8,522 nt of DNA from Candidatus Woesearchaeota archaeon (GTDB lineage: Archaea > Nanobdellota > Nanobdellia > Nanobdellales > CAZNIQ01): assembly GCA_964573185.1 (NCBI GenBank), contig CAZNIQ010000026.1:1-8522 (forward strand). Direction: 5' to 3'. Shown one piece after another: positions 1,791-8,522 of this stretch. How positions within the stretch are numbered: the first letter of the stretch is position 1; every line of letters begins with the position of its first letter. The translations under genes and the position numbers were made by a program. The notes beneath the pieces were generated by a model. That model searched no databases. It was not told where the DNA came from and saw only the letters and a program-made list of their open reading frames with translations.

Positions 1791-2861
1791 TTAAAAGGTA
1801 GTTCTTACTATTCTCTTTTCTTCATCTTTCTCGTAAATCTTTCCAAAGAAATGTTCACATGTCCATATGTTTGTTACCAAATGTCCTGTAAATTCAGAGG
1901 TCTGCAAAGCACCACCCACTAATCCTAAATACGGAATAAGATTATCCGCTAAATGATTATCTATAACACCATCTTTTTCTTCTTTTATAAATTTCTCCGC
2001 AGCTTCTTTACCTACCTCTTCAGCAGGTTTTCCTTTTTCTCCCCTAGCATCAGAACCTAAAACAACCCCATTCTCCCTTAAACCTACGATTGTGATAACA
2101 GAACCGGGAGATAAGGTTCTATCATACATCGTTATTTCAGCAATTTTTACATTATATTCTTTTTCTAAAATTTCTCTTGCAGCTTCTATTTGCCTTTCAG
2201 CAACTTTCCTTTTCTCTAGAACATCAGAAGCAAAAGAATAAACATATATTTCCTTTAAGGGCTTCTTTTCAGTTAAGTTATATCTTGGAACATTTTTTCT
2301 CAAATCATTTAAGAACTCCTCAACAGAATCATAGTTATCTCTTTTAAATCTTGGTTTTATTCTTACATATACCAAACCCCCTCCTTTTGGATAAAATCCT
2401 CTTCTCTGAACTTCAAATCTTAGATCATACACAAATCTTCTTAAATAAGGTAATATAACAAACCTAAAGTAATCTGCAGATGGAGACCAGGCAACATCGG
2501 TTCCACCTCTTATATAAAGCTCTGTTACTCTATTTGCGAAAAGCAAAGGTAAGATTACAGCTTGTAACAATAGAGTTATAGAACCAGCGGTGCCTATATC
2601 TATATTGTATTTTCCTCCTTCAATATAATAAGGATGGAATTCTACTTCTAAAGAACCGATTTCGATTCCTTTAGTTTTCGCACCTGAAATTTGAGCTAAG
2701 AATTTTAAAGCTGTCATATGCTGTGCTTTTAATCCAGGAGGATTTCTCCCTTTTCTTATGTTTATAATTTTAATAGGTTTCTTAAACAAGACAGATAATG
2801 CTGTAGCAGTTCTTACTATCTGTCCGCCAGCTTCCCCGTATCCTCCATCAATTATTAACAT
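1791..2861 (-). CDS. rtcA: RNA 3'-terminal phosphate cyclase
   Basis: 356-aa ORF. The N-terminus IIDGGYGEAGGQIVRTATALSVL matches the RtcA motif (IDGS.GEGGGQILRT..ALS). The DNHLADNLIPYL region contains the conserved His that is adenylylated in RtcA. Length is typical for the family. Confidence 0.9.
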   Translation of the reverse strand: MLIIDGGYGEAGGQIVRTATALSVLFKKPIKIINIRKGRNPPGLKAQHMTALKFLAQISGAKTKGIEIGSLEVEFHPYYIEGGKYNIDIGTAGSITLLLQAVILPLLFANRVTELYIRGGTDVAWSPSADYFRFVILPYLRRFVYDLRFEVQRRGFYPKGGGLVYVRIKPRFKRDNYDSVEEFLNDLRKNVPRYNLTEKKPLKEIYVYSFASDVLEKRKVAERQIEAAREILEKEYNVKIAEITMYDRTLSPGSVITIVGLRENGVVLGSDARGEKGKPAEEVGKEAAEKFIKEEKDGVIDNHLADNLIPYLGLVGGALQTSEFTGHLVTNIWTCEHFFGKIYEKDEEKRIVRTTF

Positions 2862-2951: not shown

Positions 2952-3035
2952 TGGGCCCGCCGGGATTCGAACCCGGGACGGCTCTACGCCATCGGGGCCT
3001 CAGCCCGACCCCTTTGGCCGCTCGGGCACGGGCCC
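2952..3035 (-). tRNA. tRNA-Leu (anticodon GAG), type II with long variable arm, no intron, no encoded CCA
   Basis: Minus-strand read: GGGCCCG UG CCCG-AGCGGCCAA-AGGG G UCGGG CUGAGGC CCCGA UGGCGUAGAGCCGUC CCGGG UUCGAAU CCCGG CGGGCCC A. It has a 7-bp acceptor, a 5-bp anticodon stem, the loop CU-GAG-GC with G37, a 15-nt variable arm and a canonical T arm. The C10-G25 pair is slightly unusual. Confidence 0.9.
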
Positions 3036-3057
3036 AATAAACTTATAAATCCATTAC

Positions 3058-3067
3058 AATTTTTTAA
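3058..3067 (-). promoter_or_regulatory. TATA-like box for tRNA-Leu (TTAAAAAATT on minus strand, -32..-23 from tRNA +1)
   Basis: AT-only decamer at the distance expected for an archaeal TATA box if transcription starts at tRNA nucleotide 1 (3035). The tRNA-Pro and tRNA-Met genes in this window show the same spacing. Confidence 0.4.
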
Positions 3068-5066: not shown

Positions 5067-5149
5067 TGCTAAATGACATTAAATTTTTAAATGTCTTACT
5101 ATTCAGTGATTAACCATAAAATATAACTTTTAAGTTTAACAATGTATTA

Positions 5150-5200
5150 ATGATGAGGGGTGCTGGGATACCGAAAATGAGGTTTGAGCCCCCTGTCTGA
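5150..5200 (+). ncRNA. candidate C/D box sRNA with degenerate internal boxes
   Basis: Perfect C box AUGAUGA (5150..5156) and D box CUGA (5197..5200) lie 40 nt apart, giving a 51-nt unit like the two clear sRNAs. The internal boxes are degenerate: D' CCGA (5171..5174) and C' AUGAGGU (5177..5183). The guides GGGGUGCUGGGAUA and UUGAGCCCCCUGU are GC-rich in an AT-rich spacer. Confidence 0.55.
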
Positions 5201-5229
5201 TTTTTAACTTTTAAATCTTCTGATTTTAC

Positions 5230-7875
5230 GTGAAGGATTTCATAAAAGAAATATTAGAGAAAGACAAGGAAATAATAGTTAAATATGTTGAGTTTCCAGA
5301 GGAGCCACCAGTTTATTCTGATTTTAAGTTTAAAAATCAAGAGGTAAATGAATTATTGGATAAATTGGGATTTAAATTATATTTACATCAAGTACAAGCT
5401 TTGGAAGCTTTATATAATGGTAAAAATGTTATTTTAACTACACCAACCGCTTCTGGAAAATCAGAAGTCTTTAGATTATATATTTTAGATCTTTATTTAT
5501 CCGACAAAAGAAACACTTTCTTACTAATTTACCCCACAAGAGCTCTTCTCTACGACCAATATGAAAAATTAAAAGAGAGATATTCTTTGGTTAGAGACTC
5601 CCCAAAAATAGGAATTCTTTTAGGAGATCTAACTTCCTGGGAGAAACAAGAAATAATAAAACAAAAACCAAACGTTATCTTAACTACACCTGATACTCTA
5701 CATTTATTTATTTTAAAGAATCATCAAGATTTTTCATGGTTCTTCAAAAACTTAAGGTTAATAGTTATAGACGAGTTACATACATATAAAGGAGTTTTTG
5801 GAACAAATGCTGCTTATCTCTTTAGAAGACTCTTTAGATTATTGGATTATTACTATAAAAATAGAAATTATCAAATAATTTGTCTTTCTGCAACTTTAAA
5901 GAATCCTATTGCCTTTGCTGAAAAGCTTTTAGGAAAAGATAATTTTGTTTTAATTGATAAGAGCTTTCATAAAAAGCCTAAAAGATATTTATTGATTTTA
6001 GATCCATCTGAAAAATATAGCAATCCGTTTATTTATTTAAAGAATCTCACATTAGATTTGATAAAACATAATATAAAGTCTTTAATTTTTGTTGAAACAA
6101 AAAGACAGACAGAGAAACTTAAATTAATGTTCTTTGACACAAATCTTCTGAATTTAATTGAAGTATATAAAGGATCGCTAACTAGGAAAACCCGCAAAGA
6201 AATAGAGAGAAAATTCAAGGATAATGAACTTCTAATTTTATTTACAACTTCTGCTTTAGAGTTAGGTATTGATATTGGCGATGTACAATGTGTTGTTAAC
6301 TTTGGTGTTCCTCCAGATGGTTTATTTTCTTTAATTCAAAGATTCGGTAGAACCGCAAGAATAAAAGAAGGCCTTAATATTTTAGTTTTAAGAGAAGATG
6401 CTTTAGACGCTTATTATAAAGAAAATGTAGACGAGTTAATCGAAAGAATAAGAAAGAATTTAATAGAAGAAATACCCGTAAACCTTGAAAACCCCTTTGT
6501 TGTAAAAAAGCACCTATTATATTTAATTAATGAATTTAGAGCTTTGCCTCTAAATATTTTAACAGATTATGAAAAGAAGATTTTGGAGGAACTAAAGAAA
6601 GAAGGTTACGTTGGGATTAGAAAAAATTGGTTTACTAATGAAGAATACGCCTATTTAAAAAGGAATATAAGCTATTCCGGAATAAGGAACATTGGGGAAG
6701 AAACTTATTATATAATAAAATACTCTGAAAAAATTAAGAGAAGAATTTTAGAGAAAAATGAAAAAGATCTTTATAGATACATTCAATTCTTGAAAATAAA
6801 GGGCATCATTTTGGAAGAAACTGATAAAAAAATATTCTATGAGCAACTTTTACCGGGCATGATTTATTTTTCTTTAGGAAGGCTTTATAGAGTTAAGGAG
6901 CATTTACTCTTAGGAAAAGTTAACTTTGTTTTTGTAGAGGAGTTAAGAACTAAAGAACCTTTAGAAACTAAACCTTTGTACAAAGAAGATGTACACATTT
7001 TGGAGATTTATGATGAGAAAAAGGTATTTGGGATACCTGTTTATCTTGCTAAATTAAGAATTAGAAGAATTTATGAGGGTTATATTTTGAAGAAAATAAC
7101 TTCTGAAAAAGATGAATATAATTATATAGGAGAATTTCATATATATGATAATCCATATATTTATGAATTTGAAACAAAGGGTATTTTCTTAGTTTTGGAT
7201 GAAAATTTGAAGGAAATCGAAGAAGAAGAATATAATATGTTTATGAAAAAGTTAGATAAATATTTGAAGAAACATAAGTTGGAAAAATTAAAAGATTTGA
7301 TTTTAATGTTTGTAAATTCAATAGACAAAGAAGAATTATATAATAAATACAGGGGTGGCACCACTAAAAGAATAATCAGAATGATTGAAAATTTCCTATC
7401 TAGATTTGGATTGGACGTTAATAAACATAAGAAACTGATATTTTACATTAAAAAGTTAATAGATTCATATTATGGATTCCAGAGTGGTTTGCACGCAATA
7501 GAACATAATATAATTAAAATATCACCTGTTGTTACAAATGTTGATTCTAGAGAGTTGGGAGGATATTCTTATGAAAGATATAAGACACTATCAGAATCTT
7601 CAGAAGTATCTAAACAATTTTTAGATAAACCCGTTATATTTATTTACGAAGGATATGAAGGTGGTGTAGGATTGGCTGAAATTCTTTTTGAAAACATTGA
7701 AAAACTTTTAATTAAGAGTAGGGAAAGTTTATTTAAGTGTAAATGTCTTGATGGTTGTCCTAGATGCATTTTATCACCAAAATGTGGAAATGCTAACGAA
7801 TTTTTAGATAAATATGCTGGAAGATTGATTTATAAAAGGTTGTTTGGAAATATTAAAAACGGGGCCGTAGGCTAG
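5230..7875 (+). CDS. SF2 DEAD/DEAH-box helicase with C-terminal DUF1998 / MrfA-type zinc-binding domain (YprA/MrfA/Hel112-like)
   Basis: 881 aa. Motif I TTPTASGKS, Ia YPTRAL.YDQ, II DELH, III SAT, V TTSALELGIDIG, VI QRFGRTAR. The C-terminal region reads GLHAIEHNI...ELGGYSY...CKCLDGCPRCILSPKCGNANEFLDK (four-Cys cluster plus N..LDK). The start is GTG at 5230: an in-frame stop lies at 5221..5223 and the first in-frame ATG is about 300 codons downstream. Confidence 0.85.
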   Translation: MKDFIKEILEKDKEIIVKYVEFPEEPPVYSDFKFKNQEVNELLDKLGFKLYLHQVQALEALYNGKNVILTTPTASGKSEVFRLYILDLYLSDKRNTFLLIYPTRALLYDQYEKLKERYSLVRDSPKIGILLGDLTSWEKQEIIKQKPNVILTTPDTLHLFILKNHQDFSWFFKNLRLIVIDELHTYKGVFGTNAAYLFRRLFRLLDYYYKNRNYQIICLSATLKNPIAFAEKLLGKDNFVLIDKSFHKKPKRYLLILDPSEKYSNPFIYLKNLTLDLIKHNIKSLIFVETKRQTEKLKLMFFDTNLLNLIEVYKGSLTRKTRKEIERKFKDNELLILFTTSALELGIDIGDVQCVVNFGVPPDGLFSLIQRFGRTARIKEGLNILVLREDALDAYYKENVDELIERIRKNLIEEIPVNLENPFVVKKHLLYLINEFRALPLNILTDYEKKILEELKKEGYVGIRKNWFTNEEYAYLKRNISYSGIRNIGEETYYIIKYSEKIKRRILEKNEKDLYRYIQFLKIKGIILEETDKKIFYEQLLPGMIYFSLGRLYRVKEHLLLGKVNFVFVEELRTKEPLETKPLYKEDVHILEIYDEKKVFGIPVYLAKLRIRRIYEGYILKKITSEKDEYNYIGEFHIYDNPYIYEFETKGIFLVLDENLKEIEEEEYNMFMKKLDKYLKKHKLEKLKDLILMFVNSIDKEELYNKYRGGTTKRIIRMIENFLSRFGLDVNKHKKLIFYIKKLIDSYYGFQSGLHAIEHNIIKISPVVTNVDSRELGGYSYERYKTLSESSEVSKQFLDKPVIFIYEGYEGGVGLAEILFENIEKLLIKSRESLFKCKCLDGCPRCILSPKCGNANEFLDKYAGRLIYKRLFGNIKNGAVG
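7829..7837 (+). promoter_or_regulatory. TATA-like box TTTATAAAA for tRNA-Pro, embedded in the helicase coding sequence (-32..-24)
   Basis: Consensus-like archaeal TATA sequence at the distance expected if transcription starts at tRNA-Pro nucleotide 1 (7861). There is no non-coding DNA upstream of this tRNA. Confidence 0.45.
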
Positions 7876-7931: not shown

Positions 7932-7935
7932 TTTT

Positions 7936-7984
7936 ATGATGATTCAACCGAATACTGAATATGATGAAGGAGCGGCGTCTCTGA
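7936..7984 (+). ncRNA. C/D box sRNA (2'-O-methylation guide), directly downstream of tRNA-Pro
   Basis: C box AUGAUGA 7936..7942; 12-nt guide UUCAACCGAAUA; D' CUGA 7955..7958; spacer AUA; C' UGAUGA 7962..7967; 13-nt guide AGGAGCGGCGUCU; D CUGA 7981..7984. It is 49 nt long, the same layout as the sRNA at 2897..2945. Confidence 0.85.
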
Positions 7985-7988
7985 AAGA

Positions 7989-8000
7989 TTTTTAAATTAA
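7989..8000 (+). promoter_or_regulatory. TATA-like box TTTTTAAATTAA for the tRNA(CAU) 5' exon (-32..-21)
   Basis: AT-only element at the distance expected if transcription starts at 8021, the first nucleotide of the tRNA. Confidence 0.4.
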
Positions 8001-8052
8001 AATTAGATCTTATTTTAAAAGCCGCCGTAGCTCAGCCTGGTCAGAGCGCCCG

Positions 8053-8442
8053 TGGCCGCCCCCGCTCCTTTCCTAAAACTTAAGAAATTAGCGGAAGAAA
8101 CAGGAATACACATAAGTAACGGTAGTATGAATATTTATTAAGCTAAAAGAATAAAAGCATAGTATTGTTTAAATATAAAGTATTAGAATTACCTTTGGGT
8201 AAAAAATTAAATATACGTATTCCAGAGATTTTACACAAGATGAAAAGCTAATGAAAAGAGAGGAAGAGCTATCTTTATCCAAGGATAGAATTTACAAATA
8301 CGTCAATTATAGGGAAAGATATAAGCTTAAAATAAGTGGCATGAGCAAGTAAAAGACGTTCTTCAAGAAAATAGGGGAGTTCTAATCCGAAATATTTAAG
8401 AAAGTATAAGCGGTTGTTTTAGTAGCGGGGGCGGCCGGCGAA
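8053..8442 (+). other. 390-nt interruption at tRNA position 30/31 (very long non-canonical intron, or trailer + spacer + leader of two adjacent tRNA half genes)
   Basis: Canonical BHB motif. The outer helix is 8054..8066 (GGCCGCCCCCGCU) paired with 8424..8436 (AGCGGGGGCGGCC), 13 perfect bp. The 3-nt bulges are CG|U (8051..8053) and AA|G (8441..8443). The 4-bp central helix pairs CGCC (8047..8050) with GGCG (8437..8440). The exon-side helix pairs GAG (8044..8046) with CUC (8444..8446). Cleavage after the second bulge nucleotide joins G30 (8052) to G31 (8443). Confidence 0.75.
8390..8400 (+). promoter_or_regulatory. candidate internal TATA-like box AAATATTTAAG upstream of the 3' piece of tRNA(CAU)
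   Basis: It lies about -34..-21 from 8421..8424 (AGUAGCGGGGG..., purine start of the GC-rich leader). This is the same spacing as the TATA-like boxes of the three tRNA 5' ends in this window. Confidence 0.35.
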
Positions 8443-8449
8443 GCTCATA

Positions 8450-8479
8450 ACCGTAGGACTTTCCCTAGGTTCGTGGGAA
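8450..8479 (+). other. 30-nt canonical tRNA intron at position 37/38
   Basis: The central helix pairs C32-U33-C34-A35 (8444..8447) with UGGG (8474..8477), including one G-U pair. The bulges are UA|A (8448..8450) and AA|A (8478..8480), followed by the anticodon-stem strand CCGGG (8481..8485). The intron-internal outer helix is weak (UAGG 8454..8457 with CCUA 8464..8467), so this is a relaxed BHB. Confidence 0.7.
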
Positions 8480-8522
8480 ACCGGGAGGTCCCGGGTTCAA
8501 ATCCCGGCGGCGGCATTAAATT

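Follow-up and report, generated by a model that had tools for sequence, protein, structure and literature searches.

A clamp-closed 390-nt interruption in a nanoarchaeal tRNA(CAU) gene: giant cis-spliced intron or two adjacent halves

Split tRNA genes have long been debated as either relics of a two-piece ancestral tRNA or late accidents. We describe a nanoarchaeal gene with features typical of split tRNAs, namely a GC clamp of 13 bp and a junction at position 30/31, whose pieces are still collinear. The gene, an elongator-type tRNA(CAU) gene, lies on the + strand at 8021-8515 of an 8522-nt stretch of DNA (the window), which makes up the first 8522 nt of the 9125-nt metagenome contig L001 (ENA ERZ27262635). 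On balance, we favor reading the locus as a functional tRNA gene with a giant, clamp-closed bulge-helix-bulge (BHB) intron, for which cis read-through would be the main route and internal transcription starts would be incidental. We favor it because the 30/31 site hosts cis introns of 20-29 nt in orthologues from DPANN archaea, because the promoter-like box before the 3' piece is weaker than the real tRNA promoters of the contig and stands at chance level, and because there is no oligo-T run between the pieces while a T7AT5 run follows the 3' end. The interval flagged in an earlier note as a possible independent promoter of the 3' piece (8380-8442) is the 3' end of this intron.

Anatomy and ancestry of the interrupted gene

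In silico splicing placed exon 1 at 8021-8052 (tRNA positions 1-30, that is, the 5' strand of the acceptor stem, the D arm and bases 27-30 of the 5' strand of the anticodon stem), intron 1 at 8053-8442 (390 nt, position 30/31), exon 2 at 8443-8449 (positions 31-37, GCUCAUA, with the anticodon CAU), intron 2 at 8450-8479 (30 nt, the canonical 37/38 site) and exon 3 at 8480-8515 (positions 38-73), all on the + strand. With 8053-8442 and 8450-8479 removed, ARAGORN finds a clean 75-nt tRNA-Met(cat) cloverleaf, and the exons are collinear, on one strand and in the right order, as in cis-spliced BHB genes. The spliced tRNA has a G1:C72 pair and hence is not an initiator; the gene appears to be of the elongator type, either elongator Met or Ile2. 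ARAGORN and Rfam scans of the window called only tRNA-Leu and tRNA-Pro and missed the interrupted gene, for the 3' part of which Rfam gave a match below threshold (8434-8515). Such failures of standard tRNA finders matter when 'missing' DPANN tRNAs are read as losses or splits.

The boundary of intron 1 is a textbook hBHBh' motif with a GAG/CUC helix, a CGCC/GGCG central helix, 3-nt bulges and a 13-bp outer helix. Its 5' side (8047-8053, + strand) consists of the central-helix strand CGCC at 8047-8050 and the bulge CG|U at 8051-8053, with the 5' splice site after 8052; its 3' side (8437-8443, + strand) consists of GGCG at 8437-8440 and the bulge AA|G at 8441-8443, with the 3' splice site after 8442. 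This conformation is predicted to lie 1.5-1.7 kcal/mol from the minimum free energy at both 37 and 80 °C. The BHB of intron 2 has a central helix CUCA/UGGG, bulges UA|A and AA|A, and a relaxed outer helix.

A complementarity search found the two + strand segments of the GC clamp, GGCCGCCCCCGCU at 8054-8066 and AGCGGGGGCGGCC at 8424-8436, which pair at 13 of 13 positions. The latter is the 'leader' of the 3' piece; in its extended form, AGUAGCGGGGGCGGCC, the leader spans 8421-8436, with the perfect 13-bp core at 8424-8436. The clamp survives at 85 °C in the predicted cis fold of the precursor (fold z-score of the whole precursor, -3.16), and a complex of two separate RNAs (8021-8075 and 8424-8516) is likewise predicted to be stable at that temperature (ddG ~ -20 kcal/mol). 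Folding predictions of this kind do not tell a cis precursor from a two-RNA complex. We also observed that UAGGGAAAG in intron 1 (8310-8318) is complementary at 9/9 positions to the loop of intron 2 (8459-8467).

A scan of 185,579 species genomes with the 3' exon, the 37/38 intron being optional, returned 47 loci; a scan of JGI metagenomes with GGCGAA|GCUCAUA returned the contig L054, plus L053 as a partial copy. Among the 47, a 'Ca. Woesearchaeota' metagenome-assembled genome (MAG; L014) has the same exons and both intron sites, 30/31 and 37/38, and the junctions ...GAGCGCCCG|U...GGCGAA|GCUCAUA|... are common to it and the window. Intron 1 of L014 is 29 nt long and has a 7-bp GC hairpin, and its intron 2 is 17 nt long; L054, which shares the exons as well, has introns of 20 and 23 nt at the same two sites. 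All three genes splice in silico to tRNA-Met(cat) and have the same CGCC/GGCG central helix, 3' bulge AA|G and splice positions. GGCGAA|GCUCAUA occurs without change in L014, L053 and L054; at the third position of the 5' bulge, the window and L014 have U and L054 has A. What sets the window apart from these DPANN double-intron tRNA-Met genes is the size of the interruption: 390 nt and a 13-bp clamp versus 20-29 nt and a 3-7-bp hairpin. An exact scan of the genome collection with the 5' exon gave no match, and neither did two scans of viral contigs. Several MAGs of Thermoproteota have a tRNA with no interruption that matches in sequence except in the D loop, and tRNA-Met genes of Thermoproteales have an intron at 29/30, one position off.

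Since orthologues have short cis introns at the same site, the interruption in the window would be an inherited intron of the cis type. Intron 1 thus appears to be the orthologue of the 20-29-nt DPANN intron, with ~357 nt added in the hairpin loop and with a closing helix that seems to have nearly doubled, to the length found in split tRNAs. The orthologues with a plain short intron also fix the direction of change, and this polarity supports a late origin from introns, however the RNA is made in the window's host.

Promoter and termination signals

The three tRNA genes of the contig (tRNA-Pro, the 5' end of tRNA-CAU and tRNA-Leu) all have G as their first base, and their W-rich boxes lie at -32..-21 from +1. 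The combination of a G start with an AT box at this distance from the mature 5' end in all three genes suggests that tRNA transcription is leaderless, as in N. equitans (Nanoarchaeum equitans), which is free of RNase P; such promoters hint that RNase P RNA may be missing here too. The stretches from promoter to start are 7829-7861, 7989-8021 and 3035-3067 (- strand); the W-rich box of tRNA-Pro lies at 7829-7837. The box A/TATA element of the tRNA-CAU gene, TTTTTAAATTAA (7989-8000, + strand), has TTTAAA at -30..-25 from G8021, a spacing that points to leaderless transcription of this gene, and its 9.5 bits are the best promoter score on the contig. The spacing agrees with the rule given for N. 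equitans (Randau 2012, PMC3491384): box A TTTAAA ~26 nt upstream of a leaderless purine start.

The earlier note proposed that AAATATTTAAG, upstream of the GC leader, may act as an independent promoter of the 3' piece, and it pointed to boxes of tRNA-Pro, tRNA-CAU and tRNA-Leu in the same position range relative to their starts. As far as placement goes, this is borne out. The TATA-like box lies at 8390-8400 (+ strand), 24-34 nt upstream of A8424, with which the 13-nt GC strand begins, and thus at -34..-24 compared with the -32..-21 measured for the three tRNA genes. Its TTTAAG (8395-8400) is at -29..-24 from A8424, and the predicted start, 8424-8427, falls on the first bases of the clamp. The whole anatomy described in the note is present in the sequence: the 5' piece, the GC leader, the 3' piece and, at the distance of a promoter, a TATA-like box.

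The strength of the box is a different matter, and here the candidate does not stand out from chance matches. It scores 4.7-5.2 bits. In a 14-nt position weight matrix (PWM) learned from 35 nanoarchaeal promoters it reaches 4.7 bits, versus 8.0 for tRNA-Leu, 8.1 for tRNA-Pro and 9.5 for tRNA-CAU, and 5-8% of positions in the contig and 10-15% of those in the intron have an equal score at the right offset. A tRNA-promoter matrix with fixed offset gives a chance match of 3% in the contig and 9% in the intron; this matrix is based on 9 tRNA genes and has poor leave-one-out power (-3.8 to 6.4), and its p-values are rough. A simple hexamer test (<=1 mismatch to TTTAAA at -30..-25, +/-2) is passed by 11-13% of contig or intron positions versus 43% of the 35 real starts. 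In DNA of ~70% AT, box matches of the candidate's quality are common. Three or four sites within the intron score better in either matrix, and the candidate ranks fourth or seventh depending on the matrix. The top intron site in both is 8201-8214 (8.0-8.6 bits, predicted start ~8238); others above the candidate have predicted starts near 8358, near 8159 (fixed-offset matrix) and near 8111 (14-mer matrix). The AAGRTT that precedes the box in the tRNA promoters of the contig is missing before the candidate, an anecdotal difference given three examples. Overall, the candidate box is at chance level (3-15% of positions) and is weak promoter evidence. As a separate observation, TATAAAAGGTTGTTT in the tRNA-Pro promoter (7831-7845) and TATAAGCGGTTGTTT upstream of the 3' clamp strand (8405-8419) match at 13 of 15 positions; at tRNA-Pro spacing the latter would direct a start near 8435, inside the clamp, and the match is perhaps due to chance.

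At best a weak stop after the 5' piece, as the earlier note had described it, agrees with what we found: the 5' clamp strand is followed only by CCUUUCCU (8067-8074), and the insert between the clamp strands holds no run of five or more T (T5+), the longest being T4 at 8229 and 8417. A T7AT5 run follows the 3' end of tRNA(CAU), at 8527-8539 of L001, past the window end. Nothing in the sequence would halt a polymerase coming from 8021 before the 3' piece, which makes the cis precursor the default. We rejected the absence of T5+ runs as a sign of selection for read-through, because shuffled inserts are expected to contain only 0.37 such runs (P(0)=0.68). Rejected as well was the idea of CCUUUCCU as a specific terminator common to it and the tRNA-Leu trailer, since the heptamer CTTTCCT turns up 7 times on the contig, too slight an enrichment to carry meaning. 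In N. equitans, 5' halves often lack defined 3' ends (PMC3491384), so a missing terminator is compatible with a split gene too. The earlier note's view that sequence alone does not decide between cis read-through and two transcripts still holds after the promoter, terminator and folding tests.

Competing readings and known systems

If the gene is expressed by cis read-through, as we favor, RNA polymerase would start at G8021 from box A (7989-8000), pass through intron 1 without meeting an oligo-T stop and end at T7AT5 just past the tRNA 3' end. The clamp and the tRNA body would then fold, and the 13-bp clamp would keep the two splice sites close at high temperature despite the large loop. The splicing endonuclease would cleave the 3-nt bulges after 8052 and 8442 and remove intron 2 as well, and an RtcB-type ligase would join the exons. 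The box at 8390-8400 and the equal or better boxes upstream of it in the insert may fire at times, as a by-product only. Transcripts starting upstream of ~8424-8427 would keep the clamp whole or almost whole and might be joined in trans; as cleavage at the BHB takes away all sequence 5' of 8443, any transcript that starts in the insert upstream of the clamp would serve as a 3' half.

Several observations weigh against this reading. Archaeal tRNA introns were reported in 2011 to span 11-129 nt (Chan, Cozen & Lowe, PMC3218864); at 390 nt, intron 1 is outside this range and three times its maximum. The 13-bp clamp exceeds the helices of the orthologous short introns and falls within the 12-14 nt given for the leaders of split tRNAs. 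The placement of the box would suit a 3' half starting at the clamp, at A8424-G8427, and 3' halves of N. equitans start in this manner (PMC3491384). A box of the TTTAAG type serves a real tRNA-Met promoter in the relative L014. Finally, by analogy with A. pernix (Aeropyrum pernix), what is annotated as an intron may prove to be two transcripts. The tRNA-Asp(GUC) gene of that species, annotated with a 121-nt intron, is two adjacent transcripts of the same strand (Chan, Cozen & Lowe 2011, PMC3218864), with an internal BRE/TATA promoter (BRE, B recognition element), a BHB, a 14-bp GC stem and traces of read-through (PMC3218864).

The main rival is a layout of the A. pernix type, in which 8021-~8075 and ~8424-8515 would be transcribed separately from their own promoters, anneal via the 13-bp clamp and the acceptor stem, be cut at the BHB and be ligated in trans, with read-through as a minor product. 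We regard this as possible, at a probability clearly below an even chance. A TATA-like box at -29..-24 from a purine start (A8424), a clamp of split-tRNA length and a two-RNA complex predicted to be stable at 85 °C (ddG ~ -20 kcal/mol) all speak for it, and the tRNA-Lys(CUU) genes of N. equitans and Staphylothermus are split at 30/31 too (PMC3218864). So does the likeness to A. pernix tRNA-Asp, which also has ordered, closely spaced pieces on one strand, an hBHBh' motif with a GC-rich stem (13-14 bp between the two loci) and a TATA-type box placed so that transcription would begin ~20-25 nt short of where the intervening sequence ends. Against it stand a box that scores below all three real tRNA promoters of the contig and is matched by chance at 3-15% of positions, a 5' piece trailed by nothing but CCUUUCCU with its common CTTTCCT, the lack of a T5+ run ahead of the 3' piece, and orthologues that mark the site as that of a cis intron. 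The differences from A. pernix are also considerable: its spacer is 121 nt at 37/38, versus 390 nt at 30/31 plus a second intron in the window; its internal promoter, in a GC-rich genome, is a strong one that surpasses 63% of tRNA promoters, whereas the box in the window is weak and lies in AT-rich DNA; its separate transcripts were seen by northern blot, whereas those of the window locus are a prediction; and the window locus, unlike that of A. pernix, has orthologues in which the intron at this site is short.

The 'split tRNA whose halves were never dispersed' of the earlier note is therefore an existing category, with A. pernix tRNA-Asp as its precedent, and an independent promoter, if true, would add one more case of the Aeropyrum type and no new principle. 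The A. pernix gene was interpreted as an intermediate on the way from an intron-containing to a split tRNA (PMC3218864). What the window locus adds is a nanoarchaeal example in which the spacer is far longer and a second intron is present, and for which orthologues show the way the change went. A further step, which we put forward only tentatively, is that a tRNA-Met has been caught splitting: a 20-29-nt intron would have gained a ~357-nt insertion and a 13-bp clamp and would now be made mainly as two transcripts joined in trans. If so, the locus would be a directly polarized intermediate (intron to adjacent halves to dispersed halves) in the phylum in which split tRNAs were discovered, and split tRNAs of the N. 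equitans type would be derived, not primordial.

Compared with the split tRNAs of N. equitans, the locus belongs to the same phylum and has GC-rich complementary strands of similar length (12-14 nt in N. equitans), a BHB at the junction, leaderless spacing with box A TTTAAA ~26 nt upstream, and dicistrons of tRNA and small RNA (sRNA) of the C/D box type; the 30/31 junction recurs where tRNA-Lys(CUU) is split in N. equitans and Staphylothermus. However, the halves in these species are encoded far from each other, at distances of kilobases to hundreds of kilobases, each needing its own promoter, whereas the pieces in the window are collinear, are separated by 390 nt that hold no terminator, and do not occupy separate loci. 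The elongator tRNA-Met of N. equitans has a 66-nt intron with a 6-bp GC hairpin, described by Randau 2012 (PMC3491384) as a possible forerunner of split leaders. It is the same type of tRNA in the same phylum, with an intron that is long for its genome; that intron contains a C/D box sRNA, while intron 1 of the window is without a C or D box, and it presumably corresponds to intron 2 of the window (37/38). In the terrestrial nanoarchaeon Nst1, no split tRNAs were found (Podar et al., PMC3655853). Insertion of mobile elements has been proposed as a driver of tRNA gene disruption (Sugahara 2012, PMC3293823), and the tRNA-Thr gene of Caldiarchaeum subterraneum is disrupted by a 1.8-kb mobile element (PMC3293823). 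Foreign DNA at a tRNA gene, as a proposed step towards introns and split genes, is a feature that the window may have in common with it; the Caldiarchaeum element encodes a recombinase and has several copies, whereas the insert in the window has no recognizable mobile-element gene, repeats or copies.

The insert within the clamp (8067-8423, + strand; 357 nt; A 43%, T 27%, G 18%, C 11%) could itself hold an expressed unit, a small open reading frame (ORF) or RNA driven from the box at 8201-8214 and running into the 3' piece. We consider this improbable; it would be compatible with either cis splicing or adjacent halves. The box scores on par with real tRNA promoters (8.0-8.6 bits), two ATG codons lie after it, at 8240 and at 8251, where a 33-aa ORF predicted by gene callers opens (8240-8352 region), and the insert is purine-rich on the + strand, as are the neighboring + strand genes. 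Three of its short frames, which include KKLNIRIPEILHKMKS and LKKLAEETGIHISN, resemble frameshifted pieces of a ribbon-helix-helix (RHH) protein, with profile matches to RHH_3 (E=0.011), HicB (E=0.08) and phrog_35940 (E=0.0018), all below threshold. Yet no long ORF is present in the insert: the ORFs measure 28-33 aa, are spread over three reading frames and are interrupted by stops; all E-values from Pfam and PHROG exceed 0.001, and NCBIfam profiles gave no match to the insert. The 33-aa ORF occurs on no other contig and matched only itself in a word-indexed search of 5.8 billion proteins. An RHH or antitoxin pseudogene was rejected and is kept as a hint. A structured RNA in the insert was rejected as well (fold z-score -0.04 versus shuffles), as was an intron-encoded C/D box sRNA, neither CTGA nor TGATGA being found within 8021-8545; Rfam gave no match in the intron at E<=1. 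In blastn and tblastn searches of the insert against all fetched loci nothing was significant, and a mobile-element origin is unsupported, with no other copies and no homologues found. In the favored reading the insert would be foreign or junk DNA; there is a hint of a decayed gene fragment.

Less probable still is a gene disabled by the insertion and now decaying, with another tRNA-Met(CAU) copy elsewhere doing the work. The interruption is very long, and 9 kb of genome at hand leave room for a second copy; however, the stems of the spliced tRNA are all perfect and the orthologues are matched outside the D loop, both BHB motifs are intact, and two clamp strands 357 nt apart that remain complementary at 13/13 positions would not persist without selection. 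We hold it very unlikely that the locus is an assembly artefact fusing two separate loci, as might happen in a metagenome assembly whose two contig records may stem from the same reads: the pieces have exactly the order, strand and complementarity that a functional gene would have, the junctions hold no long repeat able to mislead an assembler at k=141, and composition shifts gradually over the region with no abrupt break.

Source organism and neighboring genes

The contig has a G+C content of 30% and its tRNAs of 70-76%, the pattern of an AT-rich hyperthermophile; the host is apparently an AT-rich, hyperthermophilic nanoarchaeon. The closest proteins to its helicase and FEN1 are metagenome sequences (65-72% identity), and the nearest named matches are Nanopusillaceae MAGs and Nanobdella aerobiophila (48-52% for the helicase, 61-64% for FEN1). 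Because of these identities we take the host to be a deep relative inside Nanoarchaeota. None of the relatives fetched conserves the gene order around the locus. A route to orthologous loci through synteny was abandoned, as neither the contigs with helicase homologues (65%, 52% and 50% identity) nor those with FEN1 homologues (72%, 68% and 68% identity) have a conserved neighborhood or a tRNA-Met gene there. A relative whose FEN1 is 68% identical (L056) has uninterrupted tRNA-Glu(CUC) and tRNA-His genes at 2783-2857 (- strand) and 5923-5996 (+ strand); both tRNAs are split in N. equitans.

The contig also encodes RNA 3'-terminal phosphate cyclase (RtcA; 1791-2861, - strand), and in L004 its relative is located close to the RtcB ligase. 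The helicase ORF (DEAD/Helicase_C/MrfA-Zn type, 881 aa) extends 15 nt into the tRNA-Pro gene (7861-7875). In three nanoarchaeal lineages a conserved TGAGCCCCCTnnCTGA stands just upstream of the helicase start codon (5185-5200 in the window, ~9980-9996 in L004 and ~80-95 in L005); it looks like the guide and D box of a conserved C/D sRNA, with a weak Rfam sR35 match at 5146-5202.

Directly 3' of tRNA-Pro lies a C/D box sRNA candidate (7932-7986, + strand; Rfam sR2, 19.5 bits) with the boxes C AUGAUGA (7936-42), D' CUGA (7955-58), C' AUGAUGA (7961-67) and D CUGA (7981-84). Together with tRNA-Pro it would form a tRNA-sRNA dicistron as described in N. equitans, and its T5 run (7989-7993) also serves as box A of the tRNA-CAU gene. 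Its D-guide region, AAGGAGCGG (7967-7975), is complementary at 9/9 positions to 8062-8070, where the 5' clamp strand ends and CCU of the tRNA-Met intron follows; the predicted methylation position falls outside this match, which may be due to chance. A second C/D box sRNA candidate (2893-2947, + strand; Rfam sR2, 25.8 bits, E=0.018) converges on the 3' end of tRNA-Leu, within the region upstream of RtcA.

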